A stretch of 64,000 bases of DNA from Clostridiales bacterium (GTDB lineage: Bacteria; Bacillota; Clostridia; Peptostreptococcales; Anaerovoracaceae): the NCBI GenBank assembly GCA_015058205.1, contig SVCS01000002.1, forward strand, positions 6,396 to 70,395, read 5' to 3'. The position numbers were made by a program, and so were the translations under genes. The notes below the pieces were generated by a model. That model was not told the origin of the DNA. It was given only the letters and a program-made list of their open reading frames with translations, and searched no databases. Positions 3,251 to 25,251 of this stretch are shown here, piece after piece; the stretch's first letter is position 1, and each line of letters begins with the position of its first letter.

Positions 3251-3252
3251 CA

Positions 3253-4059
3253 GTGAACACAGTAAGAGAGATTTTTAATGAACACAAATTATATGGAAGG
3301 CAGATTTTGAAGCTGGCTAAAGCGGACCTTGTTAAGACATACAGAGGTTCTGCTCTAGGTTGGGCATGGGCTCTCGTCAAACCGGTTGTTACGATATTCG
3401 TATTCTGGTTTGCGTTCTCATATGGACTTAGAATGGGCAGAGAGATAGATGGTTTTCCATTCTTTCTTTGGCTGATTGCAGGGTTTGTACCATGGTTTTA
3501 TATGCAGAGCATGATCACCGGCGGCGCAGGATGCATCAGAGCTAATAATCAGTTGGTTACGAAGATGCACTTTCCTGCATCTGTTGTACCAACATTTGTG
3601 AGCATCTCAAAGTTGTTTATTAATATCATACTGGTTGTGATTATGATTGTTATATTCTGGGCATTCGGACATCCGCCGACGATCTATTATCTGAACATTC
3701 CGGTATACATGGCGATGATGTTCGTCTGGTTTACGATCTGGGCGCTCTTCTCGGGAATGCTTTCGGCTATGAGCCGTGACTTTCTGAATCTGATCAAGGC
3801 TTTGTCACAGGCCATTTTCTGGATGTCAGGCATCATATACGATGTTAACAGCATTGATGTGCACTGGATCAAGTCGATGTTGTGTTACAACCCGGTTACG
3901 ATTATTGCGACAGGTTTCAGATATACTTTTGTCTATCAGAAGTGGTTCTTCGAAGACGCGTATATGTTAAGATGCTACTTCATTTGTCTCATTGTAATCA
4001 TTATTCTGGCGATTTGGGCATATAAGAAGACATACAAGGATATACCAGACGTTCTGTAA
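3253..4059 (+). CDS. tagG: ABC-2 type polysaccharide/teichoic acid export permease (TagG/TarG-like)
   Basis: Polytopic membrane protein whose N-terminus (ADLVKTYRGSALGWAWALVKPVVTIFVFWFAF) matches the TagG/ABC-2 pattern. GTG 3253 lies 7 nt after a GGAGG (3241-3245) and is preferred to the in-frame ATG at 3211. Confidence 0.8.
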   Translation: MNTVREIFNEHKLYGRQILKLAKADLVKTYRGSALGWAWALVKPVVTIFVFWFAFSYGLRMGREIDGFPFFLWLIAGFVPWFYMQSMITGGAGCIRANNQLVTKMHFPASVVPTFVSISKLFINIILVVIMIVIFWAFGHPPTIYYLNIPVYMAMMFVWFTIWALFSGMLSAMSRDFLNLIKALSQAIFWMSGIIYDVNSIDVHWIKSMLCYNPVTIIATGFRYTFVYQKWFFEDAYMLRCYFICLIVIIILAIWAYKKTYKDIPDVL

Positions 4060-4073
4060 GAGGATATATTAAA

Positions 4074-4799
4074 ATGGCTGAAACAGTAATCAAATTTGAC
4101 CATGTGGTTAAACGCTACAAACTATTTAAGAATGATAGAGAACGTTTCCTGAGTATTTTTTCTAAAAAGGCAAGATACAAGGAAAAACTTGCGACCAACG
4201 ACTTGTCCTTTGAAATCAAAAAAGGAGAGGGCGTTGCTTTCATGGGCAGAAACGGCGCCGGCAAATCCACCATTCTCAAGATGATTACAGGTGTTTGCTA
4301 CCCGACGTCGGGTACCATTTACGTCAATGGCAGAGTCAGCGCACTGCTGGAATTGTCCGCTGGATTCAACCCGGAATTCACAGGCAGAGAAAACATCTAC
4401 CTGAAGTGCAATATCATGGGTATGAACAACGATGAAATCAAAGCAATCGAACAGGATATTGTAGATTTCGCGGAATTGGGCGAATACATCGACCAACCGG
4501 TCAGAACATACTCAAGCGGTATGAAGGCACGTCTTGGTTTTGCAATCAATGTCAGCATTGATCCGGAGATTCTCATCGTCGACGAGGCATTGAGCGTCGG
4601 TGATAAGAACTTCAGAAAGAAGTGCACGAATAAGATGCGTGACATCATGCATCATGAAGATGTAACACTGCTCTTTGTAACTCACTCACTGGAGACGGCC
4701 AAGGAATTCTGCACTAGAGGAATCGTCCTCGAGAAGGGCACCATGAAGTTTGACGGCGGTATTCAGGAGGCAATCAATTATTACGAAGGTAAGTACTAG
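4074..4799 (+). CDS. tagH: Teichoic acid/polysaccharide export ABC ATP-binding protein (short TagH/TarH type)
   Basis: Walker A is GRNGAGKSTILKMITG, the ABC signature is YSSGMKARLGFA and Walker B is ILIVDEALSVGD. It sits immediately downstream of the permease. Confidence 0.85.
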   Translation: MAETVIKFDHVVKRYKLFKNDRERFLSIFSKKARYKEKLATNDLSFEIKKGEGVAFMGRNGAGKSTILKMITGVCYPTSGTIYVNGRVSALLELSAGFNPEFTGRENIYLKCNIMGMNNDEIKAIEQDIVDFAELGEYIDQPVRTYSSGMKARLGFAINVSIDPEILIVDEALSVGDKNFRKKCTNKMRDIMHHEDVTLLFVTHSLETAKEFCTRGIVLEKGTMKFDGGIQEAINYYEGKY

Positions 4800-4801
4800 A
4801 C

Positions 4802-5956
4802 ATGGGATTTGCGATAAGGCTGCTCAAGGGAGTGCTGGCGCTGATATACGCGTTCATGAAGCTGCTTCCCGTCAAGGACAATAAAATCGTCTTCTGCAGC
4901 AGGCAGAGCAGTGTGGTTCCACTGGACTTTGCACTGATACAGGAGGAACTTGAGAAACGGCAGGATGGGCTTTGCGTTGTCAATATCTGCAACCGGATCG
5001 GCAAGGGCGCCGGTGCGTATGCTTCCTTTGCAGTCGATACATTGAAGAGCATGAAGCATATGGCCACCTCGAAAGTATGCGTCCTCGACACATACTGGCC
5101 GGCTGCGAGCATGCTGAATCATAAAAAAGAACTGACTATCATACAGATATGGCATGCCATCGGCAAGATCAAGAAATCGGGCATGATCACAGCCGGAACC
5201 AAAACCGGCAGAGACCCGAAGATAGCAGCTCTTTTTAATATGCATGAGAAGAATGATTACATCATCGCAGGAGCGAAGGCCTTCGATCAGTTTTATCGGG
5301 ATTCCTTCGGCGACTACGATTACACACTTCTCAATTACGGACTCCCGAGGATCGACTATCTGATCAATAATGAACAGGCGAACAGAGAGCGGTTTTTCGA
5401 GGAGAATCCTGAGCTGGAAGGAAGAACGATCCTGCTCTACGCACCGACATTCCGGAGAGGAATGGAGGCAAGATGGCGGGATATCATCGACGTTGTCGAT
5501 CCTGAGAAATACACACTGATCATCAAGAACCATCCGACGCAGAGAATCGAAGGCGAACGACCTGCTGAGCACGTCAAGTACTTCGACAACTGGGAAGCGG
5601 TCGATCTGCTGGCAGTCAGCGATTATGTCATTACGGATTATTCTGCGATCGCACTGGAAGCGGCAGTGCTCAGGAAAAAGACACTGTACTGGGTCTATGA
5701 CTACGACGCCTTCGTAGCAGAAAATGGACTCAATGTAGATATGTTCGAGAGCATGCCGGGGCTGGCGTTCAAGGACGCCGCTGAAATGATGGCCTTTATC
5801 GATAAGAACGAGTATCCGATGGAGCGGCTGGATGCTTACAGGCAGAAGTATCTGCCGGAGGATCTGGGGCATTCCGCCGAGAAAATCGCCCAGCTGATTC
5901 TCGATACATTGGACGGCAAGACTGTCGAAGGAAACGGAACCGTCAAAGGAAACTGA
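4802..5956 (+). CDS. CDP-glycerol glycerophosphotransferase family protein (TagB/TagF type)
   Basis: Has the LLYAPTFRRG motif plus VITDYSAIALEAAVLRKKTLYWVYDYD, both characteristic of the TagB/TagF family. Size is about 380 aa. Confidence 0.8.
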   Translation: MGFAIRLLKGVLALIYAFMKLLPVKDNKIVFCSRQSSVVPLDFALIQEELEKRQDGLCVVNICNRIGKGAGAYASFAVDTLKSMKHMATSKVCVLDTYWPAASMLNHKKELTIIQIWHAIGKIKKSGMITAGTKTGRDPKIAALFNMHEKNDYIIAGAKAFDQFYRDSFGDYDYTLLNYGLPRIDYLINNEQANRERFFEENPELEGRTILLYAPTFRRGMEARWRDIIDVVDPEKYTLIIKNHPTQRIEGERPAEHVKYFDNWEAVDLLAVSDYVITDYSAIALEAAVLRKKTLYWVYDYDAFVAENGLNVDMFESMPGLAFKDAAEMMAFIDKNEYPMERLDAYRQKYLPEDLGHSAEKIAQLILDTLDGKTVEGNGTVKGN

Positions 5957-5957
5957 T

Positions 5958-6581
5958 ATGAGATTTGTCATCATGGCCGACGGCCAGGGAACAAGATGGA
6001 ATAACTATATGGGTGTGCCTAAGCATCTGGCCCTTGTGGACGGAGAACCTGTTCTCGGCAGGACCGTACGTCTGCTGCGGGAAGTTGCTGCAGAAGCTGC
6101 AGCTGCGTCAGGTGCTGCTTCAGGTGGCAACGATCCGGAGATCATCATCACATCCCATGATGAGCGGTATGAGTTCGAAGGCGCGACGAGACACGAGCCG
6201 GAGAACAACATCTACGAGATTGACCGGTTCACGACAGAGCTGGTCTGCGATGAAATGTGCTTTCTCTACGGAGACACCGTATACGATAAGGAAGTGCTGG
6301 CGGACATCGTCGCATCTGATGCAGAAGACATCCTCTTCTACGGCAACAGGAAATCCGTTGTGGCTGTGCGGATCGGCGATGCAGAGCTGTTCAGGAAGCA
6401 CTTCAACAGAGTGAGGAATCTCTTCGTAGACGGCAAAATAGAAAAATGCAAAGGCTGGCAGATCTACCAGTCAGTGACGGGGCAGGATTTACGTGAGAAA
6501 CCTGTCATCGGTGAGAAGTTCGTATTGGTCGACGAACATACTACAGATATCAATACACCGGAGGAATACAGAAACATATGA
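5958..6581 (+). CDS. Nucleotidyltransferase (MobA/LicC-like NTP-transferase fold); substrate unknown
   Basis: The N-terminus FVIMADGQGTRWN...PKHLALVDGEPVLGRTV resembles the (L)xxGxGTR(L/W) signature of sugar- or alcohol-phosphate nucleotidyltransferases. It contains an Ala/Gly/Ser-rich insert. Confidence 0.6.
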   Translation: MRFVIMADGQGTRWNNYMGVPKHLALVDGEPVLGRTVRLLREVAAEAAAASGAASGGNDPEIIITSHDERYEFEGATRHEPENNIYEIDRFTTELVCDEMCFLYGDTVYDKEVLADIVASDAEDILFYGNRKSVVAVRIGDAELFRKHFNRVRNLFVDGKIEKCKGWQIYQSVTGQDLREKPVIGEKFVLVDEHTTDINTPEEYRNI

Positions 6582-7621
6582 TGAATTTCTGCAGAAAAGC
6601 GCTCAAAAAGATCAAGCTGTTCGTGCTCTACTGGACACGGATTGTCTTCGTGCGCAACAATTTCAAGGTCCCGTTCCTCACGAAGGTAAGGGCGAACCTC
6701 AACGGTTATCTTGGAGACCAGTACATTCTCTACGATTTCAAACACACGGACAAGAACGAGTATCTTTCGGAGTTCGACTGGTACCGGTCCAGATATATCA
6801 ACGAGCCATTTGACTTCGCTTTCAACAACAAAGTTGTCTGCGCGGAGATGCTCAAACACCACATTCGGTTCTCCCAGAATTACTTCATCATCAACAAGGG
6901 CGTACTTCACGATTTCGAACATGGTCCGCTCACCTTCGATGCAGTATTCGATAAGATCATCGAAGAAGGGAAGCTGGTCATCAAGCCTTTCGCCATGGGC
7001 AAAGGCAACGGCGTCCACCTGCTGTCCTACGAGAACGGGAAGTTCTTTATGGACACAGAGGAGAAAACCCGCGAAGAACTGGAAGCTTATCTGAAGAAAC
7101 TAGACATGTATGTGTTCTGCGAGTACATCCATCAGCATCCGTATTCAGACAAGCTCTACGATAAGACCACGAACACCATCCGTTTCATCACCATGCGCGA
7201 TATCGACACCCATGAGATGAAGGTGTTCCGCGCCGTTCAGAGAATCGGCCGCAAGGAGACGATTCCGGTGGATAACGGAAGCAAGGGCGGCCTCGTGGCA
7301 AACATCGATCTGGAAACAGGCATGCTCAGCGAAGCAAAATGCCTGAAGGAACTGGGCAGTTGGGACGTGCATCCTGACTCCGGCAATCCAATCAAAGGCG
7401 TTGTCATTCCGGATTGGGACGGCATCAAGAAGGAAATCCTCGACGTATGCAAGAAGATTCCGTACATGGACTTCATGGCCTGGGATCTGCTCATTACCGA
7501 GGAAGGGCCTTGCGTCATAGAAATCAACACATCATCAGGTATCAACATCATACAGCTGTGGGGAGGACAGAAGCAGGGAGAGCTCGGCGACTTCTTCCGC
7601 CACTACAAAGTCATCAAGTAA
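6578..7621 (+). CDS. Sugar-transfer associated ATP-grasp (ATPgrasp_ST-like) amidoligase
   Basis: Blocks are VIKPFAMGKGNGVHLL, EYIHQHPY...NTIRFITMRD, RIGRKETIPVDNGSKGGLVANIDLETG, HPDSGNPIKGVVIPDWDGIKK and MAWDLLITEEGPCVIEINTSSG. The start overlaps the upstream stop (ATGATGA). Confidence 0.7.
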   Translation: MMNFCRKALKKIKLFVLYWTRIVFVRNNFKVPFLTKVRANLNGYLGDQYILYDFKHTDKNEYLSEFDWYRSRYINEPFDFAFNNKVVCAEMLKHHIRFSQNYFIINKGVLHDFEHGPLTFDAVFDKIIEEGKLVIKPFAMGKGNGVHLLSYENGKFFMDTEEKTREELEAYLKKLDMYVFCEYIHQHPYSDKLYDKTTNTIRFITMRDIDTHEMKVFRAVQRIGRKETIPVDNGSKGGLVANIDLETGMLSEAKCLKELGSWDVHPDSGNPIKGVVIPDWDGIKKEILDVCKKIPYMDFMAWDLLITEEGPCVIEINTSSGINIIQLWGGQKQGELGDFFRHYKVIK

Positions 7622-7657
7622 CAACTCGAATGAGTTGAGAAATGTATCACGAATAAA

Positions 7658-9583
7658 ATGAATCTGTTTACAAGAGTTTTCATGTATATGTACATATTCC
7701 GGCCGACTTCCAGAGGCGTCAACACTTTGTCTGCCAAGAAGTGGTTCCGGAAAATCCATCGGGATTTCCGCCGCAACAGAAAGTATTCGGTCTCCCGGAA
7801 ACTCAAGGCATACAGCGCAGGCTGGCTGCCTGCTTACATGAGCAGATTCGGTCTTGATAAGGAGAGCGCCCGCGACATCGTCTGCGAGCGCGATTATCTT
7901 TATCTGCAGCCTATCAACGGCGCCTACAGCAAATGGCTGGATGCAGATGAAGTAACCGAAAAAATCTTTTATCCATTCACAGATTATCTGAAACTGGGAA
8001 CCGACTGCGATGCAGACGGTGCTTCTGATGCGCCGGAATCCCGTAGCGTCCGCATCATCGTCACGAATGAGAAGGGGTATAACCCAATCATCACCGAGGT
8101 CCTCGGTGACAACGACGTGCCTTGCTGGGACGAGGTGGTTTCCGTGACAGACAAAATCGCCAGATTTGCTCCGCAGCTAGGATTCTTCGCAGCGGATGTT
8201 GCCTTTGCAGAAGACGGCAGGAGCTTCTGGTTCACGAAGTTCTACAACTATCCGGAGTATCCGGAGGATTACATCTTCAGCAAGGAGACCAACGACTTCC
8301 TGAAGAAGAAGCTTCGTGAAAGCAAAGAGCGCGCCGCCAATGTCAAGCTGCGCCGCGCCAACGCCAGAGAGCGCGTCATGTTCAAGACCAGAAAGCTCTT
8401 TACGATGGCGTTCTTCCCGAAAGATCTGGTGCCGTATCTGAGCGTCAGATGGATCAGCGAAGTCACGAAGGATCTTTTCAGCAACACAGGAGTGTCTCTT
8501 GGGGATAAAATCTGGGCCTACCGGCATGGCTTCCTGTCCTACAGAATTCCGCAGTACGGCATCACCAGAGAGAACCATCTGAACTTCATCTCTGACTTTG
8601 AATATAAGTGGCTGCGCCACATCAACGGCGACTACAGGCTGCTCTTTGAAGATAAGATTACGATCAAATACATCGTAAACGAGTTCAGGGAGTGCTTCCC
8701 GGATTACTACTACCACATCAAGACGGATATCGATGAGAACGTCATCATCCCGATGATGGACTGCCCGGAAGGCTATGGCAGAGATTACAGCGATATCATC
8801 AGACTGGCCAAGGAGAAGGGCGTACTTGCCCTGAAGCCGGATGAAGGTTCACACGGAGAAGGATTCTACCGGCTGAAGTATGTGCCGAATGAGACTTCGG
8901 ACGGTCAGAGCGGCGGCAACGGTAACGGAGACGGCTGCGGAAGCGGCGGACGGTTCTATCTGAACTTCGATGAAGCTTCCGAAGAGCGGGTGATCAACCT
9001 CCTTAGCGACACAGCCAACCAGTATCTCGTTACGGAATACATCGACAACCATCCGCAATTCAAGGCCATTTACGACGGTGCCGTCAACACGGCTAGAATG
9101 ATCGTCTTCAAGGAAGACGGCGTACATCCTGTGTTGGGCAACGCGTACCTGCGCTTTGGCTCCAAGCAGACCGGTGCCGTAGACAACATGGGCGCGGGCG
9201 GCATCTTCGTGCAGGTGGATATCGATACGGGAAGATACCACGATGCGAAGATCATCACGCACAACTCCATCATTCCATGTCCGGTCCATCCGGATACGAA
9301 GGTTCCTTTGGAAGGGTATATCCCGCACTGGGAGGATGTGAAGAAAACGGTTCTCGCAGTGGCAGAAAATATTGCGCCGCTGGAGTACTTCGGATTCGAC
9401 GTGGCAATTACCGAGACAGGAATCAAATTCCCTGAGATCAACCGGTTCCCGGATTATCCGAAGATCGAGAAACTCAGCCCGATTACGACCAAGTATCTGC
9501 TGGGTAAACTGGAACAGAAGAAAAAACGCGTCGGCTATGACAAGCACCCGTGCCGTAAGCTGGTGCACCTGCCGAAGCGGTAG
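7658..9583 (+). CDS. ATPgrasp_ST-like amidoligase preceded by a truncated, degenerate second copy
   Basis: The C-terminal half has LALKPDEGSHGEGFYRL, EYIDNHPQF...NTARMIVF, RFGSKQTGAVDNMGAGGIFVQVDIDTG, HPDTKVPLEGYIPHWEDVKK and FGFDVAITETGIKFPEINRFP. The N-terminal third ends in a similar tail (FFAADVAFAEDGRSFWFTKFYNYPEYP). A Gly/Asn-rich insert is encoded at about 8895-8950. Confidence 0.65.
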   Translation: MNLFTRVFMYMYIFRPTSRGVNTLSAKKWFRKIHRDFRRNRKYSVSRKLKAYSAGWLPAYMSRFGLDKESARDIVCERDYLYLQPINGAYSKWLDADEVTEKIFYPFTDYLKLGTDCDADGASDAPESRSVRIIVTNEKGYNPIITEVLGDNDVPCWDEVVSVTDKIARFAPQLGFFAADVAFAEDGRSFWFTKFYNYPEYPEDYIFSKETNDFLKKKLRESKERAANVKLRRANARERVMFKTRKLFTMAFFPKDLVPYLSVRWISEVTKDLFSNTGVSLGDKIWAYRHGFLSYRIPQYGITRENHLNFISDFEYKWLRHINGDYRLLFEDKITIKYIVNEFRECFPDYYYHIKTDIDENVIIPMMDCPEGYGRDYSDIIRLAKEKGVLALKPDEGSHGEGFYRLKYVPNETSDGQSGGNGNGDGCGSGGRFYLNFDEASEERVINLLSDTANQYLVTEYIDNHPQFKAIYDGAVNTARMIVFKEDGVHPVLGNAYLRFGSKQTGAVDNMGAGGIFVQVDIDTGRYHDAKIITHNSIIPCPVHPDTKVPLEGYIPHWEDVKKTVLAVAENIAPLEYFGFDVAITETGIKFPEINRFPDYPKIEKLSPITTKYLLGKLEQKKKRVGYDKHPCRKLVHLPKR

Positions 9584-9610
9584 ACGTCAGTCACTGCTTT
9601 CGCTTATAAT

Positions 9611-9902
9611 GTAAAAATCCGTAGAGATGAATCTCCAGAAGGAGAGTATTTGCGGAATTCCATTCCGGCACACAGCTCATAGTGTAAAAATCCGTAGAGA
9701 TGATTCTCAAGGTAGTTCATATTTACGGAAATCCACACAGACATCCTGCACAAAGCGTGAAAATCCGTAGGGATGATTCTCAAGGTAGTTCATATTTACG
9801 GAAATCCAATTGGACACCCTTCTCATCGCGTACAAACCCGTAAGAATTGAGCTCTTATCAATTCACATCTACGGGTTTTCTTTTTTCTTCTCCTTTTTCT
9901 TC
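9611..9902. repeat. Four tandem 73-bp units, each carrying a CCGTA...TACGG hairpin
   Basis: Unit starts are 9611, 9684, 9757 and 9830 (GT[AG][AC]AAA[TC]CCGTA...). Units 2 and 3 are nearly identical over the first ~52 nt (AAAATCCGTAGrGATGATTCTCAAGGTAGTTCATATTTACGGAAATCCA). Unit 1 is diverged in the loop. Unit 4 has a GC-richer stem followed by a T-run. Confidence 0.85.
9835..9890 (+). terminator. Rho-independent terminator (last unit of the 73-bp array)
   Basis: CCCGTA-A-GAATTGA-GCTCTTA-TCAATTC-ACATC-TACGGG forms an extended hairpin, followed by TTTTCTTTTTTC. Confidence 0.6.
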
Positions 9903-9912
9903 TCACAACTGG

Positions 9913-9941
9913 TTGACAACAAGTAGCGGAAGAAGTAGTAT
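9913..9941 (+). promoter_or_regulatory. Sigma-A-like promoter for the orphan gene 10028-11011
   Basis: TTGACA (9913-9918), a 17-nt spacer, then TAGTAT (9936-9941). A strong RBS AAAGGAGGG lies just before ATG 10028. Confidence 0.5.
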
Positions 9942-10027
9942 GACTTATAACTGTTATTTATTTCCAATAATTACAGAATATCTCAAGTGAAGAAAGCGGG
10001 GAAAAATGGAAACAGAAAGGAGGGAAT

Positions 10028-11011
10028 ATGGCAAAAGCCTTGATAAGGATCACCGCAGCTGCATTTAACAAGTCAATTGAATATGCACTCCATGATCCGC
10101 CTGACTGGGAGGCATCTTCAGCGAAAATACGAAGAGCGATAAGCAGATTGCCGCAAGGAACTCTATATCCATCGGATCATGGCAGAACTGTGGAGTTTTA
10201 TGTGTCAGTAGATGGAAAGCAACGGCATATTTCCAAAGATGCGGCAACAATTCATAACCTTGCAAAGAAAAAGTATCTGTGCATTCTGTTGGATATTCTT
10301 TTGCTGACTAACTCGACGAGAAAGAAAGATATCCAGAGACGTCATAAGCTGATCGAAAGATTGAAGAAACTCATCGAAACATTTGAAAGAGGTAAACTGG
10401 ACTTGAGGCAAATCGTTCTCACAAATCAGCAATATCATTGGTTTACTGGAGAATTCGTTCGAAAACGAATTGATGCAGACAAAGCAATTCGGACTGCTTG
10501 CGGCATTCTTGTAAGATCAAAATCTGAACGAGACATTGTCAACTATAGCGAAGGACTGGCCGTTCCGTTGCATTATGAGGAGCGGATGTTGGTATATGTG
10601 AAACCCTTAGTAGATGAGCTGGAAAGAGAGTTAAAGCAGGAGGGGTTATTTAACAGAGAGCTGTATCGTTATATTAACGGCAATATCAATTGGAATGTAC
10701 CACCCGAATATGCATGGATAAATACCAGAGGATCTATTTGGAAATCATATCATCCGCCAACGGGTAAAATTATGATTTTCAATGACTTCAGAATAATGTT
10801 GGCAGATGGATCTATCCTAATCCATGAACATTCTGGCTTGATGAGTAAGTTCAGATACAGACAGAACGAGACAGAAAGGATCGCAGTTATGAAGATCACG
10901 GGTTCTGTAGACAGAAATCATCTCATTGAAACCTATGAGCAGGAGATCGATACGCCGGAGAAGCTCATTGACATTATAGAGAAATACATTCTGCCGCGCC
11001 TCTGGTTTTAG
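10028..11011 (+). CDS. Orphan hypothetical protein; C-terminal half possibly has a PD-(D/E)xK (TnsA/Vsr-like) nuclease fold
   Basis: Strong RBS and its own promoter. The pattern VRSKSERDIVNY...LHYEE ... FNDFRIMLADGSILIHEHSGL ... Y ... NHLIETYEQEI fits the E / D / ExK-like spacing seen in restriction-endonuclease-fold proteins. It looks AT-richer than its neighbours and has no relation to glycopolymer enzymes. Confidence 0.45.
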   Translation: MAKALIRITAAAFNKSIEYALHDPPDWEASSAKIRRAISRLPQGTLYPSDHGRTVEFYVSVDGKQRHISKDAATIHNLAKKKYLCILLDILLLTNSTRKKDIQRRHKLIERLKKLIETFERGKLDLRQIVLTNQQYHWFTGEFVRKRIDADKAIRTACGILVRSKSERDIVNYSEGLAVPLHYEERMLVYVKPLVDELERELKQEGLFNRELYRYINGNINWNVPPEYAWINTRGSIWKSYHPPTGKIMIFNDFRIMLADGSILIHEHSGLMSKFRYRQNETERIAVMKITGSVDRNHLIETYEQEIDTPEKLIDIIEKYILPRLWF

Positions 11012-11312
11012 TATGGAATGCAAAGGCAACACAAAAGCATACGGGAAAAGACAGTAAAAAGCACACTGTGGGTAACTTGTGCACAGTTGTGGGCAGCTGT
11101 GCTGTCCACGGCTGTGTGAAAGTTATCCATAATGTGCTTTTATTCTCAACCGATTTATTATCTATGGACGCTCCGAGCTTGCCGCGCTGGCTGCCGGTGC
11201 CTACTGGGGACCGAGCGGCCAGCTATAAGGCGAGCAACGCTCGGTAGACGGCCACCGGCCGCGTCTTAACGCGGCCGGCATCGTTTGTCTGCATCATTGT
11301 AAATGGCGAATG

Positions 11313-12935
11313 CTATAATTCGCCTTCGTAATCAACAACTTCCAGCAGGTGCCGCTTGGCGCCCAGATTTCTGGTGGACTGCTGCCCCAGGAACTGGGTG
11401 ATGGAGTTGCCTTCAACGATGATCCATTTGCCTTCCTCGGTGTAGGCCAGATCCCAGCCGATGAAGCGGAATCCCGGAATCTTGTCGCAGATCTTGCGGC
11501 CCAGTGCAAGGGCTTGCTCCCAGTCAGGAAGCTGGAAGCCCTCAAAGGTCACTTCCGTATATGGATGGGTGTCGTAGCGGCGGCCTTTTTCATCGATGCC
11601 GTTGCTTTCGAAGTAGCCCTTCTCAGCGTTGATCGCGGTGAAGATCCCGCCGGCGCCGCCGTTATCCACGAAGGATCCTTTCTGCCCGATCTTCATGAAT
11701 GGCTTATATACGAACATCTTCTCTCCATCGAAGTAGGTGATGAGTCTGGCTGTATTAACAGAGTCGGGATTCAGTGCGCTTAAAGCAGGATGGGATTTGA
11801 TCAGCCCCTCCGCAATGAACCCGTCCGGCTCTTCTGCCAGGAGTTTTTTGAACAGGGCGTCTACATCGTCGGTCACTTCGATCGGCTGGACGCCTCTGCC
11901 CATGGAATCATAGAAGAGCTTTCTGACAAAGGTTGGGTTGTTTTTGCAGAATTCCCGGAACTTCGGAAGATCTTTCTCCGACTCGACCAGGATCATATCT
12001 CTTCCGTAGTATTCCTTCAGGAAGCAGTAGGTTTTGTATTTATCATCCAGGTTGTCAGCCTGGGACATATCGTTGACCGTATCCAGAACGACGGCCCGTT
12101 CCGGTTCTGTGATGAACTCACGCTTCTCAGGAAGGCTCTTGTGATTCAGATCGAACATCACATATTCAACCAGATTGAAACCGAGGAGCACGCGAGTCGC
12201 TTCCATATCCAGAAGCGTCTCTTCCAGCGCGGCTGGATCGCCCGGATAATCCTGATCGCCAGTCAGGTCAGGCCGGCTTGGGGCGATGGCTTCTTTCAGT
12301 TCTGCGCGAATCGTATCCGTCATGAGCTGACCGGTGATATCCACAAACTCATCGTATTCTGCCTGTGTATCCGCGTAAGCTGTTTCATACCATTCGTCCC
12401 GCTTGCCCGGAGCCACCGGACTGTCGGGGCCTTCCAGCTCTTTCGGGTCGATGCCACAGAATGGATCGCTCTTGTCGATGGCGCGGAATTTCTCACGCAG
12501 CAAATCTCCCAGTTCCAGCCTGCGGCTGAGCAGGGCGAGGACCTCATCTGTCTGCGCTTCATCCAGTTTGTACATCTCAAGACGGTTGAACCAGTGGAGA
12601 TTCAACTTGTAGGATGAGCGGCGATTGAGATCTTTGATGCGTTCTGTCAGCTGTTTTTCGGTCATGCCAGATGCTGCCATGATCTGTTTCAGCGCTTCCG
12701 CGCGGCGGCGGTGGTTGCCGGCCGTCTTCTTGGATTCACGCGCTTTCTGCGTATAGGACATGTCGTAGAATTTCCGCTCATAGTATTCCCGGAAGTTGAC
12801 GCCGAACTTGTCTCTTGTCTCCTTCATGTCGCGGGCAGTGGCAATCAGTCCTCTGCCTGAAGCGGCAGCGGACAGCTTCACATAATCAAACCTGCTTTTT
12901 GTTTTTTTATTGCTCATAGGTGGAGTCTCCATCAA
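11313..12935 (-). CDS. ATPgrasp_ST-like amidoligase with a ~230-aa helical N-terminal extension; one of only two CDSs called on the minus strand
   Basis: The C-terminal half has NTARLITYF, KIGQKGSFVDNGGAGGIFTAINAEKG, HPYTEVTFEGFQLPDWEQA and FRFIGWDLAYTEEGKWIIVEGNS. The likely true start is the ATG at 12917 (MSNKKTK...), preceded by GGAG; the track start is 12935. Confidence 0.7.
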   Translation of the reverse strand: MMETPPMSNKKTKSRFDYVKLSAAASGRGLIATARDMKETRDKFGVNFREYYERKFYDMSYTQKARESKKTAGNHRRRAEALKQIMAASGMTEKQLTERIKDLNRRSSYKLNLHWFNRLEMYKLDEAQTDEVLALLSRRLELGDLLREKFRAIDKSDPFCGIDPKELEGPDSPVAPGKRDEWYETAYADTQAEYDEFVDITGQLMTDTIRAELKEAIAPSRPDLTGDQDYPGDPAALEETLLDMEATRVLLGFNLVEYVMFDLNHKSLPEKREFITEPERAVVLDTVNDMSQADNLDDKYKTYCFLKEYYGRDMILVESEKDLPKFREFCKNNPTFVRKLFYDSMGRGVQPIEVTDDVDALFKKLLAEEPDGFIAEGLIKSHPALSALNPDSVNTARLITYFDGEKMFVYKPFMKIGQKGSFVDNGGAGGIFTAINAEKGYFESNGIDEKGRRYDTHPYTEVTFEGFQLPDWEQALALGRKICDKIPGFRFIGWDLAYTEEGKWIIVEGNSITQFLGQQSTRNLGAKRHLLEVVDYEGEL

Positions 12936-12957
12936 TTACAAACTTCGTCTGTTCACT

Positions 12958-12985
12958 TTGAAGTATAGCACAATAATGGTATAAT
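12958..12985 (+). promoter_or_regulatory. Extended -10 promoter upstream of the Mur-ligase-like gene
   Basis: TTGAAG (12958-12963), a 16-nt spacer, then TGGTATAAT (12977-12985). Confidence 0.55.
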
Positions 12986-13018
12986 TACATGATAAAGATA
13001 TGACAATCAGATTGCTGA

Positions 13019-15118
13019 ATGAAGGAGCGGAAAGCACCGCGTAAGAATATGAACAAAGTCAGTAAATACAAGAGAAATCTTTACAGAAGAGCAGGCGCGA
13101 ATCAGGACGATATGAAGGATCTCATCAAGAAGAGAATCTTCAAGAAGGGCTATGTCAAGCGCAAGCTCGTAGGAGAGAAAGCGACGAAGAACACCATCAA
13201 TGAGACAGTGGGCGGTCTCTGTGAGAAATTGGGAACGAAGTACCCGGATGATTTTAAGTGGGCAGCCGCTGATCAGAAGATCACAAGTGTAGAACGTGCC
13301 GTGACTCTGACCGAGAAGGGCGGGGCCTTTCTTATTGGCAGAACGAACCCTGAAGTCCACTTGCGGAATATAAAAGAAGCGGCAGATCGGGGCGTTGCAG
13401 TGATTTTCGCAGATGCAGATACGGTCCGCAGCGCCGACTTCGACATTGCGCCGTATCCGGTGATTCTCGTAGAGAACGGCTTCAGGAAATTCACTGAATT
13501 CTACAGGCCATATAGAGACGCATACAAAGGCAAGGTGGTCGGCATCACCGGATCCCTGGGCAAAACCACGACCAGAGGTTACATTAAGTGCGTGGTGGAG
13601 CAGAAGTATCCGGCTTATGTCAGCACATCCAATCTCAATTCATCCCACAACGTAGCATCGAATATCATCAACAACGCGAGTCCTGCCAACAAAGTGCTCG
13701 TGCAGGAAATCGGCGCCAGCATCAAAGGCAGTGTTGCTACGTCGGCGGAGATCCTGCACCCGGACATCGCTGTCATCACCAATGTCAGGGAGCATCACGT
13801 CAATGAGTACGGGAGCATCGATAATGTCTTTGCGGATAAGATTACGCTTGTGGAATTCCTGACCGACGGCGGAACTGCAGTGGTCAACTTCGATGACGAC
13901 AGACTCGGCACCTATGACTACAAATGCAACGTGGCATCCTTCGGTATCGATACAGACAGGGATGTGAAATACAGAGGCAGCAATATCGTGCAGAATGGGG
14001 AACTTCTGGAGATGGATGTCAGCTACGGCGGCAAAACCGTTCATGTGAGCTCGGAAATCACCGGGGAGCACAATGCCTACAACATCCTCGCTGCCTTTGC
14101 AGTAGGAAAAGTGCTCGGCATCAGCGATGAACTCATCAAGGAAGGCATCGCAGAGTACCGCGCGTCCGGCACGAGACAGAATATTGTGGAATACGGCAGG
14201 AACACGCTGTTTGTGGACTGCTACAACGTATCCAACGACAGCATCAGCGACTGCATGAAGACACTCGAAGAAATGGATGTCCCGGAAGGGGGACGCCGCA
14301 TCGCCATTGTCGGCGGAGAGAACAAACTGGGCGATCTGCGTGTGGAGAAGACAAGAGAACTGGGACAGACCATCGCGAAAGCTAAGGTGGACGAGATCGT
14401 CTGCTATGGCTCGGACAAGACAGATGAGGATGCCCTTGACAGATTCGGTGATCCGCAGACTCTTTACGATACCATCAAAGAATGCGGTAATGAGAATGTC
14501 AAGCTGGTCAAAGGATTCGATAACATCGTCGATTACATGGAGAAGGAAATCCAGCCGAACGATGCGGTATTATTCAAATGCATCGTCTATCTGAATATGC
14601 CGGTATCCATCGATAAAGCCTTTGGAACAGGGTTCTGCCTGGGACAGAAGGAGACCCGCAAAGGCCGCAAGACGAAGACCATCGGCGGATACAAAGGCTT
14701 CATCATGCGTGAGATGGAAGAAGCATATATCAAGGATGTAACAGAAAAGAAGCTGTCCCAGAAGACTATCGTCATTCCGGATGAATTCGATGGCAGGCCG
14801 GTCTTCGCCATCGGCAAGGGCCTGTTCGCCTTTTCCGACGTGGAGACACTGGATCTGGGCAACTCACTGCAGCATATTGCTGTGGGAGCTTTCCGCAACT
14901 GCCGCAAGCTGAAGGAGGTGCGGATTCCGGATTCTGTGAAGTACATCCGCGAGGGAGCATTCCGGGGATGCACCAATCTGGAGAAAGTCACACTGGGTTC
15001 AGGACTCATCCAAATCGACAAGAACGCCTTCGGCGGATGCAAAAAGCTGAAGAATGTCGTCGTTCCGCCTGATTTGGACGCAGTGATCGATCCGGACGCT
15101 TTTGATATCGAGATTTAA
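13019..15118 (+). CDS. Mur ligase family protein (MurF-like) fused to C-terminal BspA-type leucine-rich repeats
   Basis: Mur-ligase P-loop VVGITGSLGKTTT (nt ~13541-13573). A middle/C-domain-like region follows (ITNVREHH..., GENKLGD). The last ~110 aa are LRR_5-like (IGKGLFAFSDVETLDLGNSLQHIAVGAFRNCRKLKEVRIPDSVKYIREGAFRGCTNLEKVTLGSGLIQIDKNAFGGCKKLKNVVVP). The start codon is uncertain because there is no clear RBS at 13019. Confidence 0.75.
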   Translation: MKERKAPRKNMNKVSKYKRNLYRRAGANQDDMKDLIKKRIFKKGYVKRKLVGEKATKNTINETVGGLCEKLGTKYPDDFKWAAADQKITSVERAVTLTEKGGAFLIGRTNPEVHLRNIKEAADRGVAVIFADADTVRSADFDIAPYPVILVENGFRKFTEFYRPYRDAYKGKVVGITGSLGKTTTRGYIKCVVEQKYPAYVSTSNLNSSHNVASNIINNASPANKVLVQEIGASIKGSVATSAEILHPDIAVITNVREHHVNEYGSIDNVFADKITLVEFLTDGGTAVVNFDDDRLGTYDYKCNVASFGIDTDRDVKYRGSNIVQNGELLEMDVSYGGKTVHVSSEITGEHNAYNILAAFAVGKVLGISDELIKEGIAEYRASGTRQNIVEYGRNTLFVDCYNVSNDSISDCMKTLEEMDVPEGGRRIAIVGGENKLGDLRVEKTRELGQTIAKAKVDEIVCYGSDKTDEDALDRFGDPQTLYDTIKECGNENVKLVKGFDNIVDYMEKEIQPNDAVLFKCIVYLNMPVSIDKAFGTGFCLGQKETRKGRKTKTIGGYKGFIMREMEEAYIKDVTEKKLSQKTIVIPDEFDGRPVFAIGKGLFAFSDVETLDLGNSLQHIAVGAFRNCRKLKEVRIPDSVKYIREGAFRGCTNLEKVTLGSGLIQIDKNAFGGCKKLKNVVVPPDLDAVIDPDAFDIEI

Positions 15119-15178
15119 GATAATCGAGATATATATCGAGATACGGGATATTAGAAATAAAACAAAAGGTATTTGCAT

Positions 15179-16930
15179 ATGACAGATTTACAGGAAAGAA
15201 TGCTGCTGCTCCTCAAGGAGATCGATGAGATCTGCAGGAAGCACGATATCACCTATTTCCTCTTCGCGGGAACAGCACTGGGCGCAGCGAGGCACAAGGG
15301 ATTCATTCCATGGGATGATGACACAGATATCATCATGGATCTGGAGAATTATGAGAAGTTCCTCAGCGTCATCCACGAAGAACTGAAAGAGGGGAGAGCC
15401 CTTGACTGGGTAAGCGAGGACAGCGAGTATCTCTTTACTTACGCCAGATACATTGATACCACCACCACGGCTCTGCAGCGCCACACGGTGTTCGGAGGCT
15501 GCACGCCGGGCGTGAAAGTGGACATCTTCTGCGCCATTCCGACGTTTTCAGACGAAGCCCTGCGCGAGAAGCACAAGATGGATGTGCTCGGATTCGCGGA
15601 GGTGTTGTGTACGACCGGCAGGATGGGTATGTACAGACCGGAAGGCTTCTACGAAGTGTTTGAAAGAGAAAAGAAAAAACAACAAAAGGCAGGAAGAGAG
15701 AAGTACATTCGGGACAACCTGCATGAACTGATGCACAGAGCGGACGGCGAGACTGAGAAATGCCTGCTCTTCTCTGGTATGATGTCCAATACAAAGACCT
15801 ATGACAGGTGCATTTTTGACGAGGCCGTCTACGTTCCTTACGAAGATACGAAACTTCCGGTCTCCAAATACAACGATCTGTTCAGCACACAGCACATCGC
15901 TGAGAGTTGGCCGGATCTGCCGCCGCACCTTGAGAAACCGAGACATCTTATGTTCGTGGATCTGGATCGGCCATATGATGTCTATAAGAAACAGCTCTTC
16001 GAAAAGATTGATGTCAAGAAGGTAAGAGAGGCGTCCATCAAGAGAAAAGAAAACAATCTTTACGAAAGAGAAACCTTCAGAGATGTTCTGATCAACAATC
16101 AGAAGATCAGAAATCTGGCGACAGAGTTGGATATCCGGAAGCGCTTTGCAGCGCGTGATCCGGAGCTGACAGCGCTGCAGATGGCAGAGCTTCTCGACGG
16201 ATACATCGAAGGACAGATGGACCGGGTCAACAAAACCTACGGCCTCGGTGTGGATGCAGGGGAAGAAATATTCCAGGCGACGCTCAATATGCTTCTCCAA
16301 CTCGGACGGTATTATGATGCAAAATCAATCATACGCACCTGTACCTCCGCGGGAATCATCGCTGTCGATGATGCCTTTGCAAAAGGTGCCGCTGAAAAAG
16401 CCGACCTGTGCGCAGGGCTGATGGAAGCGGCATTCCGGTATGGGGACAGAGAAAAGGCAAAGGCATTGCTGGATGAGGCAGGAGACCTGACCGGGTCGCG
16501 GCCTTATGAAGCGGTGGAGAACTGGCTCGCACAAGAAGAAGGCGTACCGGGATATCAGGCATATCTGAAAGCCTTCGGAGAACCGAAGAACGGATTTGTG
16601 CTGCAGGAGATGATTGAAGATGGTATGCCGATCGACAGCATCTTCGAAGTGGAAGAGGAGAAGAAACCGTCGCCGGATAAGAAGATGCTCAGGGCAACGG
16701 TCAACTCCCTGATGACAGGAAAACCTGCGAAGAAACCAAGCATCTGGAGCGATGTGGTGACACAGGCAGAATTCGAGGCAGAAGCGGCGCGGCGCGGACT
16801 GCTGTCAAAACAGAACAAGAAGCGATACAATAAATATAGAATCTGGAAGAAGATGAAGCGGCAGAAGGCAGAGGACACCTTTGATGCATACGCGAAAGTG
16901 TTCACCGAAATGGAAAAGATTGGAAAGTGA
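15179..16930 (+). CDS. LicD family phosphotransferase with a ~300-aa helical C-terminal extension
   Basis: LicD signature ITYFLFAGTALGAARHKGFIPWDDDTDIIM. ATG 15179 lies 9 nt after AAAGG; the track start at 15173 is a TTG. Confidence 0.8.
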   Translation: MTDLQERMLLLLKEIDEICRKHDITYFLFAGTALGAARHKGFIPWDDDTDIIMDLENYEKFLSVIHEELKEGRALDWVSEDSEYLFTYARYIDTTTTALQRHTVFGGCTPGVKVDIFCAIPTFSDEALREKHKMDVLGFAEVLCTTGRMGMYRPEGFYEVFEREKKKQQKAGREKYIRDNLHELMHRADGETEKCLLFSGMMSNTKTYDRCIFDEAVYVPYEDTKLPVSKYNDLFSTQHIAESWPDLPPHLEKPRHLMFVDLDRPYDVYKKQLFEKIDVKKVREASIKRKENNLYERETFRDVLINNQKIRNLATELDIRKRFAARDPELTALQMAELLDGYIEGQMDRVNKTYGLGVDAGEEIFQATLNMLLQLGRYYDAKSIIRTCTSAGIIAVDDAFAKGAAEKADLCAGLMEAAFRYGDREKAKALLDEAGDLTGSRPYEAVENWLAQEEGVPGYQAYLKAFGEPKNGFVLQEMIEDGMPIDSIFEVEEEKKPSPDKKMLRATVNSLMTGKPAKKPSIWSDVVTQAEFEAEAARRGLLSKQNKKRYNKYRIWKKMKRQKAEDTFDAYAKVFTEMEKIGK

Positions 16931-16938
16931 GGACCGAG

Positions 16939-17385
16939 ATGAGAAGAGTACTGACATATGGAACCTATGACTTACTGCATTATGGCCATATCAGATTGCT
17001 GAAACGTGCGAAAGCATTGGGAGATTATCTGATCGTTGCAATTTCAACGGACGAATTCAATGCCGGCAAAGGAAAGAAAGCATATCACAACTACGAAACG
17101 AGAAAGGAAATGCTGGAAGCGATTAGATATGTGGATTTGGTTATTCCAGAAGAAACATGGGAACAGAAAATCGATGATGTAAAGAATTACCATGTGGATG
17201 TTGTCGTCATGGGAAGTGACTGGGAAGGTAGCGAGAGGTTTGAAATCCTGAGGGACTACTGCGAAGTTGTCTATCTTGACAGAACAGAAGGTGTTTCAAC
17301 GACAAAAATTAAGGAAGAACTTGGGCTTCAGGAGCCGGAGAACGGCGTCAGCCAGATTCCAACGCCGGAGTTAAAAGACAGATAA
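16939..17385 (+). CDS. tagD: Glycerol-3-phosphate cytidylyltransferase
   Basis: VLTYGTYDLLHYGHIRLLKRAKALGDYLIVAISTDEFN...AYHNYE.R...IRYVDLVIPE..WEQK...VMGSDWEG.F..L...CEVVYL.RTEGVSTTKIK is collinear with Bacillus TagD. ATG 16939 follows GAGGA. Confidence 0.9.
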   Translation: MRRVLTYGTYDLLHYGHIRLLKRAKALGDYLIVAISTDEFNAGKGKKAYHNYETRKEMLEAIRYVDLVIPEETWEQKIDDVKNYHVDVVVMGSDWEGSERFEILRDYCEVVYLDRTEGVSTTKIKEELGLQEPENGVSQIPTPELKDR

Positions 17386-17514
17386 GTCTGTCAATTTAAA
17401 GATAAAAACAGTATTGCAAAAGCAAAAAATGAGTGCAAGACAGGTTTGCCTGTGATAAAATATTACGAGGATATTAAGAGATTAGTATAGAGATTAATAT
17501 GTTTTGAGGAAAGG

Positions 17515-18777: not shown

Positions 18778-18810
18778 TTAACAATCTTAAATGTTAATAA
18801 TTAGATGTAG

Positions 18811-18846
18811 GGAATCCGGGAATAAACACCCGGATTCCTTTTTATT
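18811..18846 (+). terminator. Rho-independent terminator
   Basis: GGAATCCGGG (18811-18820), loop AATAAACA, CCCGGATTCC (18829-18838), then TTTTTATT. Confidence 0.85.
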
Positions 18847-18874
18847 GTATTTTGTTTAGAGGGGCTATGTAGCT

Positions 18875-18903
18875 TTGACTTTAGGGCCTTTATTTAATAT
18901 AAT
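18875..18903 (+). promoter_or_regulatory. Near-consensus sigma-A promoter
   Basis: TTGACT (18875-18880), a 17-nt spacer, then TATAAT (18898-18903). Confidence 0.7.
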
Positions 18904-18967
18904 AAAGTCGGTGTTTTATGTGGCTTTGCAAAGTCGTTTGAGCCACAGAAAAGAACGAGATTTTAGT

Positions 18968-22230: not shown

Positions 22231-22461
22231 ATGAGAGAAACTGTAATGGAGATTCTGCAGGAAATCAGAGGCGATGTTGATTTTGAAAATGAAACAAGAC
22301 TCATTGATGACAACATTCTGGCGTCCCTGGATATCGTTGCGATCGTCGGCGAATTCAATGATGAATTTGACATTGAGATCTCTGTAGAAGACCTCATTCC
22401 TGAGAATTTCAACTCAGTGGATGCTATGGTTGAACTTATCACAAAGGCACAGGAAGAATAG
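22231..22461 (+). CDS. Small phosphopantetheine-type carrier protein (ACP/DltC-like)
   Basis: A 76-aa acidic protein. DDNILASLDIVAIVGEFNDEFDIEI fits the (D/A)S(L/F)D carrier-protein serine motif. Confidence 0.7.
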   Translation: MRETVMEILQEIRGDVDFENETRLIDDNILASLDIVAIVGEFNDEFDIEISVEDLIPENFNSVDAMVELITKAQEE

Positions 22462-22463
22462 AC

Positions 22464-23408: not shown

Positions 23409-23409
23409 C

Positions 23410-24033: not shown

Positions 24034-24049
24034 TCCAGGGAGGAGCGAC

Positions 24050-24457: not shown

Positions 24458-24467
24458 ACCAAAAGAC

Positions 24468-25241: not shown

Positions 25242-25251
25242 GAGGAACACC

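Follow-up and report, generated by a model that had tools for sequence, protein, structure and literature searches.

The attachment of amino acids to surface glycopolymers is mostly known as extracellular D-alanylation by the Dlt proteins or as single amidations such as the one carried out by Cj1438C of Campylobacter jejuni. ATP-grasp and Mur ligases convert a carboxylate into an acyl-phosphate, which is then captured by an amine. Here, we describe a group of such ligases encoded in a stretch of 64,000 nucleotides (nt), in the following called the window, from the metagenome-assembled genome (MAG) of an uncultured member of the Clostridiales (contig SVCS01000002.1). Three ATP-grasp genes of the PF14397 family (ATPgrasp_ST), termed AG1, AG2 and AG3, and a gene for a MurF-like ligase fused to leucine-rich repeats (LRR), termed Mur-LRR, are found there within a teichoic-acid locus (Table 1). 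Comparison with related loci demonstrates that the invariant core of this module consists of a TagF-like enzyme, a LicC-like nucleotidyltransferase and AG1, rather than of the four ligases. We consider it most likely, with a probability of roughly 55%, that the module builds a short peptide containing D-amino acids on a phosphate-linked wall polymer by serial assembly in the cytoplasm on the teichoic-acid machinery.

The pathway for the stem peptide of peptidoglycan (MurC-MurF, Ddl and MurI) resembles the module in being cytoplasmic and ATP-dependent and in proceeding stepwise on a carboxylate via acyl-phosphates. Mur-LRR has the three-domain fold and the ATP-site motifs of MurF, and genes for Ddl and a racemase occur as neighbors. 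In contrast to this pathway, however, three of the four ligases of the module are ATP-grasp enzymes of PF14397, the MurF-like one bears LRR and scores below the MurF cutoffs, and the partners are TagF-like and LicC-like proteins instead of MurA, MurB, MraY and MurG. RimK, LysX and ArgX have the closest solved folds to AG1; they extend a macromolecule at its C-terminal carboxylate by an amino acid. Their identity to AG1 is only 12-16%, AG1 differs by its N-terminal helices, and their known acceptors are proteins; with the RimK/alpha-L-glutamate ligase-like model TIGR02291 (cutoff 314.2 bits), AG1, AG2 and AG3 score 36.1, 37.6 and 21.6 bits. The machinery for poly-gamma-glutamate (PGA; PgsB/CapB, CapC and CapA) and cyanophycin synthetase likewise combine a Mur-type ATPase with CapA-like proteins or with an ATP-grasp domain, respectively. 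Unlike these systems, the window (first 30 kb) contains no PGA_cap or CapC gene, its Mur domain is MurF-like, and the cyanophycin synthetase model TIGR02068 gives 46 bits against a cutoff of 850.

The C-terminal domain of C. jejuni Cj1438 is a TupA-like ATP-grasp and an experimentally proven polysaccharide amidoligase, which forms one amide by joining an amino-alcohol phosphate to glucuronate (PMC11800379). Like this enzyme, the ATP-grasps of the module are encoded in a surface-polymer locus and would amidate a carboxylate of the polymer, and in one of our loci (L017) TupA-like genes lie beside the core. The module differs in that its ATP-grasps belong to PF14397, that up to six ligases are present and that uronic-acid genes are not conserved. 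Cj1438C and Klebsiella CfmP were considered as characterized members of PF14397 and rejected, since both are TupA-like (PF14305), a family with which AG1, AG2 and AG3 give no match at an E value of 0.01 or better. In C. difficile, the LicC-like FtaB (CD0242) and the TagF-like FtaD (CD0244; Q18CY0) attach a phosphodiester-linked amino acid via CDP-threonine (CDP, cytidine diphosphate), which is tailored while bound to CDP (bioRxiv 10.64898/2026.02.12.704994; PMC10714395). This flagellin Type A (Fta) modification shares with the module the same pair of enzyme classes in tight gene coupling, a likeness at the level of enzyme class. Its target, however, is the O-GlcNAc of flagellin and its tailoring enzyme a methyltransferase, whereas the module is coupled to wall-polymer export and attachment by TagGH and LytR-CpsA-Psr (LCP) proteins and employs amide ligases.

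In its working, the module resembles a hybrid of the Mur pathway, the Fta CDP-amino-acid pathway and the polysaccharide amidoligases. Judged by profile and motif comparison it belongs to no characterized system, as it falls outside MurF, RimK, the TupA-like family, PgsB and cyanophycin synthetase. ATP-dependent amino-acid decoration of surface glycopolymers is already known as a class, and the PF14397/Mur-LRR module would be new within it. The founding paper of the PF14397 family is reportedly that of Iyer et al. in 2009. The original prediction, which was made from the letters of the window, had stated that no member of this family is known to be biochemically characterized; in agreement with this, none was found in our literature search of an incomplete library, and neither was an account of Mur-LRR fusions or of this gene combination.

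The invariant core of the module

About 20 independent loci were compared, which were anchored on Mur-LRR (L001-L011, L027 and L028; relatives with 33-100% identity) or on AG1 (L012-L026) and annotated with phmmer seeds and Pfam. A contig scan with narrow peptide patterns gave 13 loci, and the co-occurrence counts given here are from small samples. In 16 of the 17 distinct AG1 loci with flanks, the TagF-like gene, the nucleotidyltransferase gene and AG1 lie side by side as a triad. The nucleotidyltransferase gene adjoins AG1 in every case, TagGH adjoins the triad in 15 of these 17 loci, and LCP genes flank the module in L012, L013, L016, L017, L021-23 and L025. The triad is distributed over Oscillospiraceae, Christensenellaceae and Anaerovoracaceae, and one of its carriers is the cultured Lentihominibacter hominis NSJ-24 (L016). 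Furthermore, a natural fusion protein, P0427 (739 amino acids, aa), contains full-length orthologs of the TagF-like enzyme (38% identity) and of AG1 (50%); it is the top match of AG1 in a library of 1.84 billion representatives and can be regarded as a Rosetta-stone link between the two activities. One AG1 ortholog was seen in 278 blocks of a public assembly collection; in more than 250 of these, it is carried by a contig of 2 kb or longer. The expectation of the original prediction that the ligases are co-conserved with glycopolymer genes thus holds in relatives from at least three lineages of Clostridia. Both parts of the combination that it had singled out, ATPgrasp_ST and the Mur ligase, do recur, but the conserved unit is the triad, and Mur-LRR is also found outside of teichoic-acid loci.

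The TagF-like enzyme scores 158.2 bits with PF04464 (cutoff 22.1). TarL (E 2e-21) and TagF (E 1e-13) are its nearest PDB entries, and an alignment with TagF (3l7i) and TarL (8va1) shows that both catalytic histidines (H444 and H584 of TagF) are kept in the motifs IQIWHA and KNHP; all scores with the specific equivalogs TarB, TarL and TarF are below cutoff. For the nucleotidyltransferase, NTP_transf_3 gives 23 bits, under the cutoff of 27, and the nearest PDB entry is a CTP:inositol-1-phosphate cytidylyltransferase (IPCT; E 0.015). Its orthologs are named nucleotidyltransferase, IspD or 'choline kinase' in their sources, and by its sequence it is a divergent LicC/IspD/IPCT-like enzyme. Beyond the closest relatives of the window there is no TagD near the module and the LicC-like gene is the sole nucleotidyltransferase gene beside the TagF-like gene, which leaves its product as the sole candidate for supplying the donor substrate of the TagF-like enzyme.

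The stop codon of the nucleotidyltransferase gene overlaps the start of AG1 by 4 nt. AG1 is the most conserved protein of the module: its orthologs are 347-350 aa long and share 55-97% identity, and in the genome of L006, AG1 is 73% identical as compared to 33% for Mur-LRR. The ATP-grasp motifs (Lys, VDN..GG, D303 and ExN) are intact. The AlphaFold 2 (AF2) model, with a predicted local distance difference test score (pLDDT) of 88.9, consists of an ATP-grasp core preceded by helices where an N-terminal alpha/beta domain is usual, and its top Foldseek matches are RimK, LysX/ArgX, PurK, Ddl and PsnB (E about 3e-7, TM score 0.45-0.55). At the sequence level, AG1 gave only chance matches in the PDB (triosephosphate isomerase, E 0.2), so that PF14397 has no solved structure that is detectable by sequence.

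Accessory ligases and their partners

As forecast in the original prediction, profile searches with Pfam and NCBIfam returned PF14397 for AG1, AG2 and AG3 (126-141 bits, gathering cutoff 31.4) and Mur_ligase_M, Mur_ligase_C and LRR_5 for the fourth ligase, in whose translation the predicted Mur-type P-loop GITGSLGKTTT is visible. The three ATP-grasp domains share 27-29% pairwise identity with phmmer E values of about 1e-19 to 1e-26, such as 4e-26 and 3e-19, far beyond chance. The shared motif blocks that had been listed for them are present, but their quoted spacings are approximate: AG3 has RKL in place of KP, and five to six instead of four residues separate (R/K)(I/F)G from VDN. The ligases had also been called consecutive; they do belong to the same cluster, but the open reading frame (ORF) 10028-11011 intervenes and AG3 is on the minus strand. 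The catalytic motifs are intact in AG1, the C-terminal domain of AG2, AG3 and Mur-LRR. Hydrophobic segments are absent from all four ligases, which are thus cytoplasmic. The predicted teichoic-acid setting is borne out by the flanks, which hold two LCP genes, TagG/TagH, the TagF-like gene, TagD, LicD and YkuD. In the public record the proteins of the locus (MBE6045158-164; returned locus tags E7221_00460-00485) are annotated as 'hypothetical protein' in five of six cases.

Mur-LRR consists of a basic N-terminal tail, a three-domain MurF-like ligase (about residues 60-530) and a BspA-type LRR_5 domain (about 560-699). Scores of 110.7 bits with Mur_ligase_M and 47 bits with Mur_ligase_C place it in the Mur ligase family. 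Its AF2 model (pLDDT 90.5) matches the MurF structures 4qf5, 4qdi and 3zl8 best in Foldseek (E 2e-28, target-normalized TM score 0.80, about 500 columns covering all three domains), and the positions for ATP, Mg and the carbamylated lysine are kept as in MurF (TGSxGKTTT, E230, H260, K274, R386-Q387 and D400-C-Y-N). With the MurF models, however, it scores below cutoff (TIGR01143, 204.2 vs 288.6 bits; PRK10773, 111 vs 551 bits), and the N-terminal Mur_ligase domain (PF01225) is undetectable by sequence in all of the approximately 56 Mur-LRR proteins, whereas the neighboring true MurFs contain it. In an alignment with true MurFs from related Clostridia, the MurF motifs NNEIGLP, GxRFDxH, LGDMxELG and KGSRGM are replaced throughout the family, e.g. 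by (V/I)GGENxLG and K(C/G)I(V/I)(Y/W)L, and an extra insert of 11-13 aa is present. Mur-LRR is thus a MurF-derived ligase with altered substrate sites and not MurF. The family of about 56 representatives occurs in Clostridia, and canonical MurF is found in the same lineages. Besides the Mur ligase, ATPgrasp_ST (L005) and PGA_cap (L006) also occur as fusions with LRR_5, which suggests a shared docking role.

The AG2 orthologs (755-789 aa) contain two ATPgrasp_ST copies each. The N-terminal copy (about residues 1-320 in the window) is without KP..G..G, VDN..GG and ExN in all aligned orthologs, while the C-terminal copy is intact; AG2 thus has one active site and one pseudo-enzyme domain. As compared to the orthologs of 777-789 aa from L006 and L016, the N-terminal copy in the window is further truncated by an internal deletion. 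AG3 has an N-terminal region of 275 aa in which no fold was recognized. Three public assemblies place its start at an ATG at 12917 (534 aa) and not at the TTG at 12935, and 12917 is probably the true start. Orthologs of AG3 are confined to the closest relatives and always accompany the long LicD (window, L001, L003, L012 and L023); the long LicD together with TagD is a lineage-specific accessory of the module. In a neighbor-joining tree, AG1, the C-terminal copy of AG2, its N-terminal copy and a diverse AG3-like clade, which includes fusions to VanY, PGA_cap and LRR_5, resolve separately, arguing for old paralogs of presumably differing specificity.

ORF 10028-11011 was considered as a part of the module and rejected, as it is missing from L001, L012 and L023, in which AG2 and AG3 are adjacent, and has gaps of 444 and 301 nt on its two sides. 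It is confined to the closest relatives and has no match in Pfam, NCBIfam or PHROG, apart from a weak match of its C-terminus to PDC-S68 in PADLOC (E 5e-6). Since it occurs only in these relatives and is absent where AG2 and AG3 abut, it is probably an insertion within the ligase cluster, possibly a nuclease or defense-type gene. The 444-nt gap after AG2 contains three tandem direct repeats of 73 nt with 72-74% identity (9611-9880) and, in each of them, an imperfect hairpin CCGTAGAGATGA...TCATATTTACGG; the repeats are followed by a terminator-like hairpin with a T-run. The repeat motif has three matches in the window as compared to 0.06 expected, all of them in these repeats. Shuffled sequences fold less well than this region (z = -3.6), and a search of 9400-11400 against Rfam gave no match.

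Around the fixed core, the number of ligases ranges from one to six. L014, L021, L022 and L025 contain AG1 and AG2 only, L016 has AG1, AG2, Mur-LRR and Ddl, and L018-20 have AG1, an AG3-like ligase and PGA_cap. The largest sets, with up to six ligases, are found in L004 (five ATPgrasp_ST genes with PGA_cap, YkuD and Mur-LRR) and L026 (racemase, Ddl, two Mur-LRR and a VanY-ATPgrasp_ST fusion). In L017, from a Bacillota MAG, the core is followed at 16140-19301 by genes for TupA-like ATP-grasps (one protein of 355 aa and one tandem protein of 696 aa, three domains in total), so that one amidoligase family has been replaced by another, with TupA-like enzymes instead of AG2, AG3 and Mur-LRR.

Ddl directly adjoins Mur-LRR in L016, L026 and L028, lies one gene off in L007 and is found within 10 kb in four more loci. 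Racemases adjoin ligases in L007 and L026 and also occur in the L003 locus. Several partners are fused to the ligases, namely as PGA_cap-VanY-Mur ligase-LRR_5 (1074 aa; L007, 1526-4750), VanY-ATPgrasp_ST (L026, 19114-21042), PGA_cap-ATPgrasp_ST (1028 aa; L008, 12074-15160) and ATPgrasp_ST-LRR_5 (L005, 3456-4904). Where a D,D-carboxypeptidase domain is fused to ATP-dependent ligases, a D-Ala-D-Ala terminus would have to be trimmed in the cytoplasm.

The YkuD protein has a signal peptide and the HYSHGC motif of L,D-transpeptidases. YkuD occurs in all five independent Mur-LRR-positive lineages of the Oscillospirales type and in none of the eight AG1 loci without Mur-LRR. From Mur-LRR to the end of the YkuD gene no terminator-like site was detected in a consensus scan, and one follows at 18809-18840.

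Table 1. Genes of the ligase module and of its surroundings (positions refer to the window)
Feature	Position	Strand	Size	Profile match or motif
Two LCP (LytR-CpsA-Psr) ligases	424-2154, 2084-3250	+		PF03816, E 5e-33 and 2e-37; N-terminal transmembrane segments in each
TagG-like ABC-2 permease	3211-4059	+		PF01061
TagH-like ATPase	4074-4799	+		PF00005
TagF/TarB-like CDP-alcohol phosphotransferase (core component 1)	4802-5956	+	384 aa	PF04464, E 4e-46
Small LicC/IspD-like nucleotidyltransferase (core component 2)	5958-6581	+	207 aa	GxGTRW motif
AG1, stand-alone ATPgrasp_ST ligase (core component 3)	6578-7621	+	347 aa	PF14397, E 4e-38, 131.6 bits
AG2, tandem protein	7658-9583	+	641 aa	PF14397 (residues 325-599), E 3e-36, 125.6 bits
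ORF between AG2 and AG3	10028-11011		327 aa	No family match
AG3, ATPgrasp_ST ligase	11313-12935	-	540 aa	PF14397 (residues 284-526), E 5e-41, 141.2 bits
Mur-LRR	13019-15118	+	699 aa	Mur_ligase_M, E 1e-31; Mur_ligase_C, E 6e-12; LRR_5, E 1e-20
Long LicD phosphotransferase	15173-16930	+	585 aa	PF04991, E 6e-30; LicD domain 21-230 and extension of about 315 aa
TagD, glycerol-3-phosphate cytidylyltransferase	16927-17385	+		TIGR01518, 190 bits (cutoff 165)
Secreted L,D-transpeptidase YkuD	17515-18777	+	420 aa	PF03734, E 7e-18, 66 bits (cutoff 23.4)
Fifth ATP-grasp, other family	22464-23408			PylC-like/ATP-grasp_3
Asp/Glu racemase	25210-25962	+	250 aa	PF01177, E 7e-21

Proposed function and alternative explanations

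Poly(glycerol phosphate) contains neither a carboxylate nor an amine, so one of these groups must come from the conserved partners of the ligases. Following the precedent of FtaB and FtaD, we propose a phospho-linked unit with a carboxylate. The LicC-like nucleotidyltransferase would convert a small phospho-compound into its activated CDP-derivative. In phosphodiester linkage, this unit would then be moved by the TagF-like enzyme onto a lipid-linked intermediate of the wall polymer. The unit would be a phospho-hydroxy-acid or a phospho-amino acid and would thus present a free carboxylate, on which AG1 would form an acyl-phosphate and attach the first amino acid. The C-terminal domain of AG2, AG3 and then Mur-LRR would each lengthen the C-terminus by one further residue, in the case of Mur-LRR most likely by attaching a D-Ala-D-X dipeptide made by Ddl. 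The LRR domain and the inactive N-terminal domain of AG2 would serve as docking modules. Finally, TagGH would export the polymer and the LCP enzymes would join it to peptidoglycan, to which the co-encoded secreted L,D-transpeptidase may add a cross-link via the peptide. We infer these substrates, the order of action, the carrier (CDP-linked, comparable to the assembly on UDP-N-acetylmuramic acid (UDP-MurNAc), or the lipid-linked polymer) and the role of YkuD from the gene content. RimK/LysX-like folds, as in AG1, and MurF-like folds, as in Mur-LRR, belong to enzymes that extend the carboxylate of a large acceptor by one amino acid. Cj1438C serves as a precedent in that it shows an ATP-grasp amidating a surface polymer. 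The stepwise building of a side chain, as put forward in the original prediction, agrees with the ligase number of one to six, the exchange for TupA-like enzymes and the recurrence of Ddl, racemase and VanY; the amide-linked peptide on the wall polymer is the part that we infer.

A bolder version would be a peptido-teichoic acid, in which a stem peptide ending in D-Ala-D-Ala is built on a CDP-activated phospho-amino or phospho-hydroxy acid, transferred by the TagF-like enzyme and cross-linked into peptidoglycan by the L,D-transpeptidase. Its assembly by ATP-grasp and MurF-derived ligases would take place in the cytoplasm, in parallel to the UDP-MurNAc-pentapeptide route. We regard this version as rather doubtful.

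Several points weigh against serial peptide assembly. The identity of the phospho-unit is a guess, and the tie to FtaB and FtaD is one of enzyme class and gene coupling. One AG1 ortholog (L015) is without a TagF-like neighbor, and Mur-LRR paralogs also occur without ATPgrasp_ST or teichoic-acid genes (L027 and L028). The ddl genes beside Mur-LRR could be housekeeping copies, and their adjacency is the one argument for D-Ala-D-Ala addition by Mur-LRR, since the MurF motifs that presumably hold both substrates are replaced in it. In view of the divergent transcription of AG3 and the lineage-specific occurrence of AG3 and the long LicD, the ligases could also act in parallel on different units instead of in series.

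In such a parallel mode, each ATP-grasp would add a single amino acid to another position or unit of the polymer, as an ester to the hydroxyl of a polyol or sugar or as an amide to an amino sugar, which would amount to a cytoplasmic, Dlt-independent decoration without a peptide chain. The position of AG3 on the opposite strand and its association with a phosphotransferase of its own, the long LicD, would fit this explanation, as would the lack of a carboxylate in poly(glycerol phosphate) itself. Ester formation by ATP-grasps is known from D-Ala:D-Lac ligases such as VanA and from graspetide ligases, and PsnB is among the Foldseek matches of AG1. A route to a 4-amino sugar at the locus (PglF-like dehydratase, 18875; DegT aminotransferase, 36183) offers a possible acyl acceptor. 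These amino-sugar genes were rejected as a conserved source of the acceptor, however, as they are absent from the minimal loci L016 and L025, which keep AG1 and AG2 with or without Mur-LRR. Moreover, extension of a carboxylate on the large substrate is the only reaction known for Mur ligases, RimK and LysX, which are closest in structure, lengthen C-termini, and Ddl, VanY and racemase neighbors suit a peptide ending in D-Ala-D-Ala better than single decorations. We therefore regard parallel action as improbable.

Less probable still is a poly-amino-acid or teichuronopeptide-like capsule, for which poly-gamma-glutamate, cyanophycin and the teichuronopeptide of Bacillus halodurans would be the models and in which a teichoic-acid-type primer would be extended processively with one or two kinds of amino acids, e.g. 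Glu or Asp, by RimK-like ATP-grasps and a CapB-like Mur ligase. The ligases are indeed accompanied by CapA-like PGA_cap, as a separate gene or in a fusion, in L004, L006, L007, L008 and L018-20, amino-acid permeases or alanine symporters and Asp/Glu racemases are found as neighbors, RimK as the nearest fold is processive, and cyanophycin synthetase, albeit a weak match, likewise joins ATP-grasp and Mur-ligase domains. The first 30 kb of the window, however, are without PGA_cap and CapC, the Mur domain is nearest to MurF and not to CapB or cyanophycin synthetase, and several old ligase clades per locus in varying number suit a heteropeptide better than a homopolymer.

We consider it very unlikely that peptidoglycan precursors are modified instead. 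In this case, the ATP-grasps would attach residues of branches or cross-bridges, like the D-aspartate ligase of E. faecium, Mur-LRR would be an alternative MurF feeding the adjacent L,D-transpeptidase, and the locus would reflect mere clustering of wall genes. This explanation is favored by the complete MurF fold of Mur-LRR, in which even the domain corresponding to the UDP-binding N-terminus of MurF is present, by the peptidoglycan-type functions of Ddl, VanY, racemase and YkuD, and by the occurrence of Mur-LRR without teichoic-acid genes in L027 and L028. However, the near-universal adjacency of AG1, the TagF-like enzyme and the nucleotidyltransferase and the fusion of the former two would have no rationale in peptidoglycan synthesis, Mur-LRR has lost the MurF-specific substrate motifs and scores under the MurF cutoff, and canonical MurF proteins are already present in the same lineages.

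Surroundings of the module and implications

The first 57 kb of the window (kb 1-57) form a single large cell-envelope glycopolymer region according to the ORF listing and the Pfam and NCBIfam matches. The TagG/TagH-like pair is the predicted exporter of the lipid-linked polymer and the LCP pair the presumed step that joins the finished polymer to peptidoglycan; the latter is context of the module. YkuD may link the peptide to peptidoglycan. Downstream of YkuD, the PglF-like dehydratase is followed by a Wzy-like protein and more genes. The Asp/Glu racemase of the window possibly supplies a D-amino acid, and its assignment to the module is tentative because of its distance of 10 kb from the ligases.

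What looks like a possible second aminoacylation route is found at 22231-25962 and 29061-30650. The first part contains a 76-aa acidic ORF resembling a carrier protein (..ILASLDIV..), the PylC-like ATP-grasp, a HAD hydrolase, a cytidylyltransferase-like protein of 135 aa, a short LicD and the Asp/Glu racemase, and an MBOAT (DltB-like) protein is encoded 3 kb further on. The carrier-like ORF, the cytidylyltransferase-like protein and the racemase also occur together in L003. Secreted CHAP-domain proteins are encoded in the polymer locus at 25940-27586 and 35507-36079, one of them with fn3 and GH85_C-like domains; they are possibly wall hydrolases or peptidases specific for this wall chemistry. 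Between 38000 and 55000 the GC content drops from about 0.48 to 0.33-0.40. Giant multidomain TagF proteins, one of 1258 aa and one of 1083 aa that is fused to GT1 and GT2 domains, a giant LicD of 1107 aa and acyltransferases are encoded there, and this region looks like a second variable teichoic-acid locus that was probably acquired horizontally.

If serial assembly is correct, the wall polymers of Gram-positive bacteria would gain a new chemical class through a conserved multi-enzyme cytoplasmic assembly line for peptides that is coupled to teichoic-acid phosphotransferases and TagGH. Such a line would also provide the first function for PF14397, a family of about 7,800 clusters at 50% identity, and would explain the approximately 56 MurF-LRR fusion proteins that are labeled 'hypothetical' or 'leucine-rich repeat protein'. 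A peptido-teichoic acid, if it exists, would add a second, peptide-based anchoring of wall polymers beside the phosphodiester attachment by LCP proteins. As cultured carriers exist, the module is directly testable. Since its hosts, Clostridia of the Anaerovoracaceae, Oscillospiraceae and Christensenellaceae, are abundant in gut and rumen, the polymer could be of importance for phage receptors, recognition by the immune system and targets of antibiotics.

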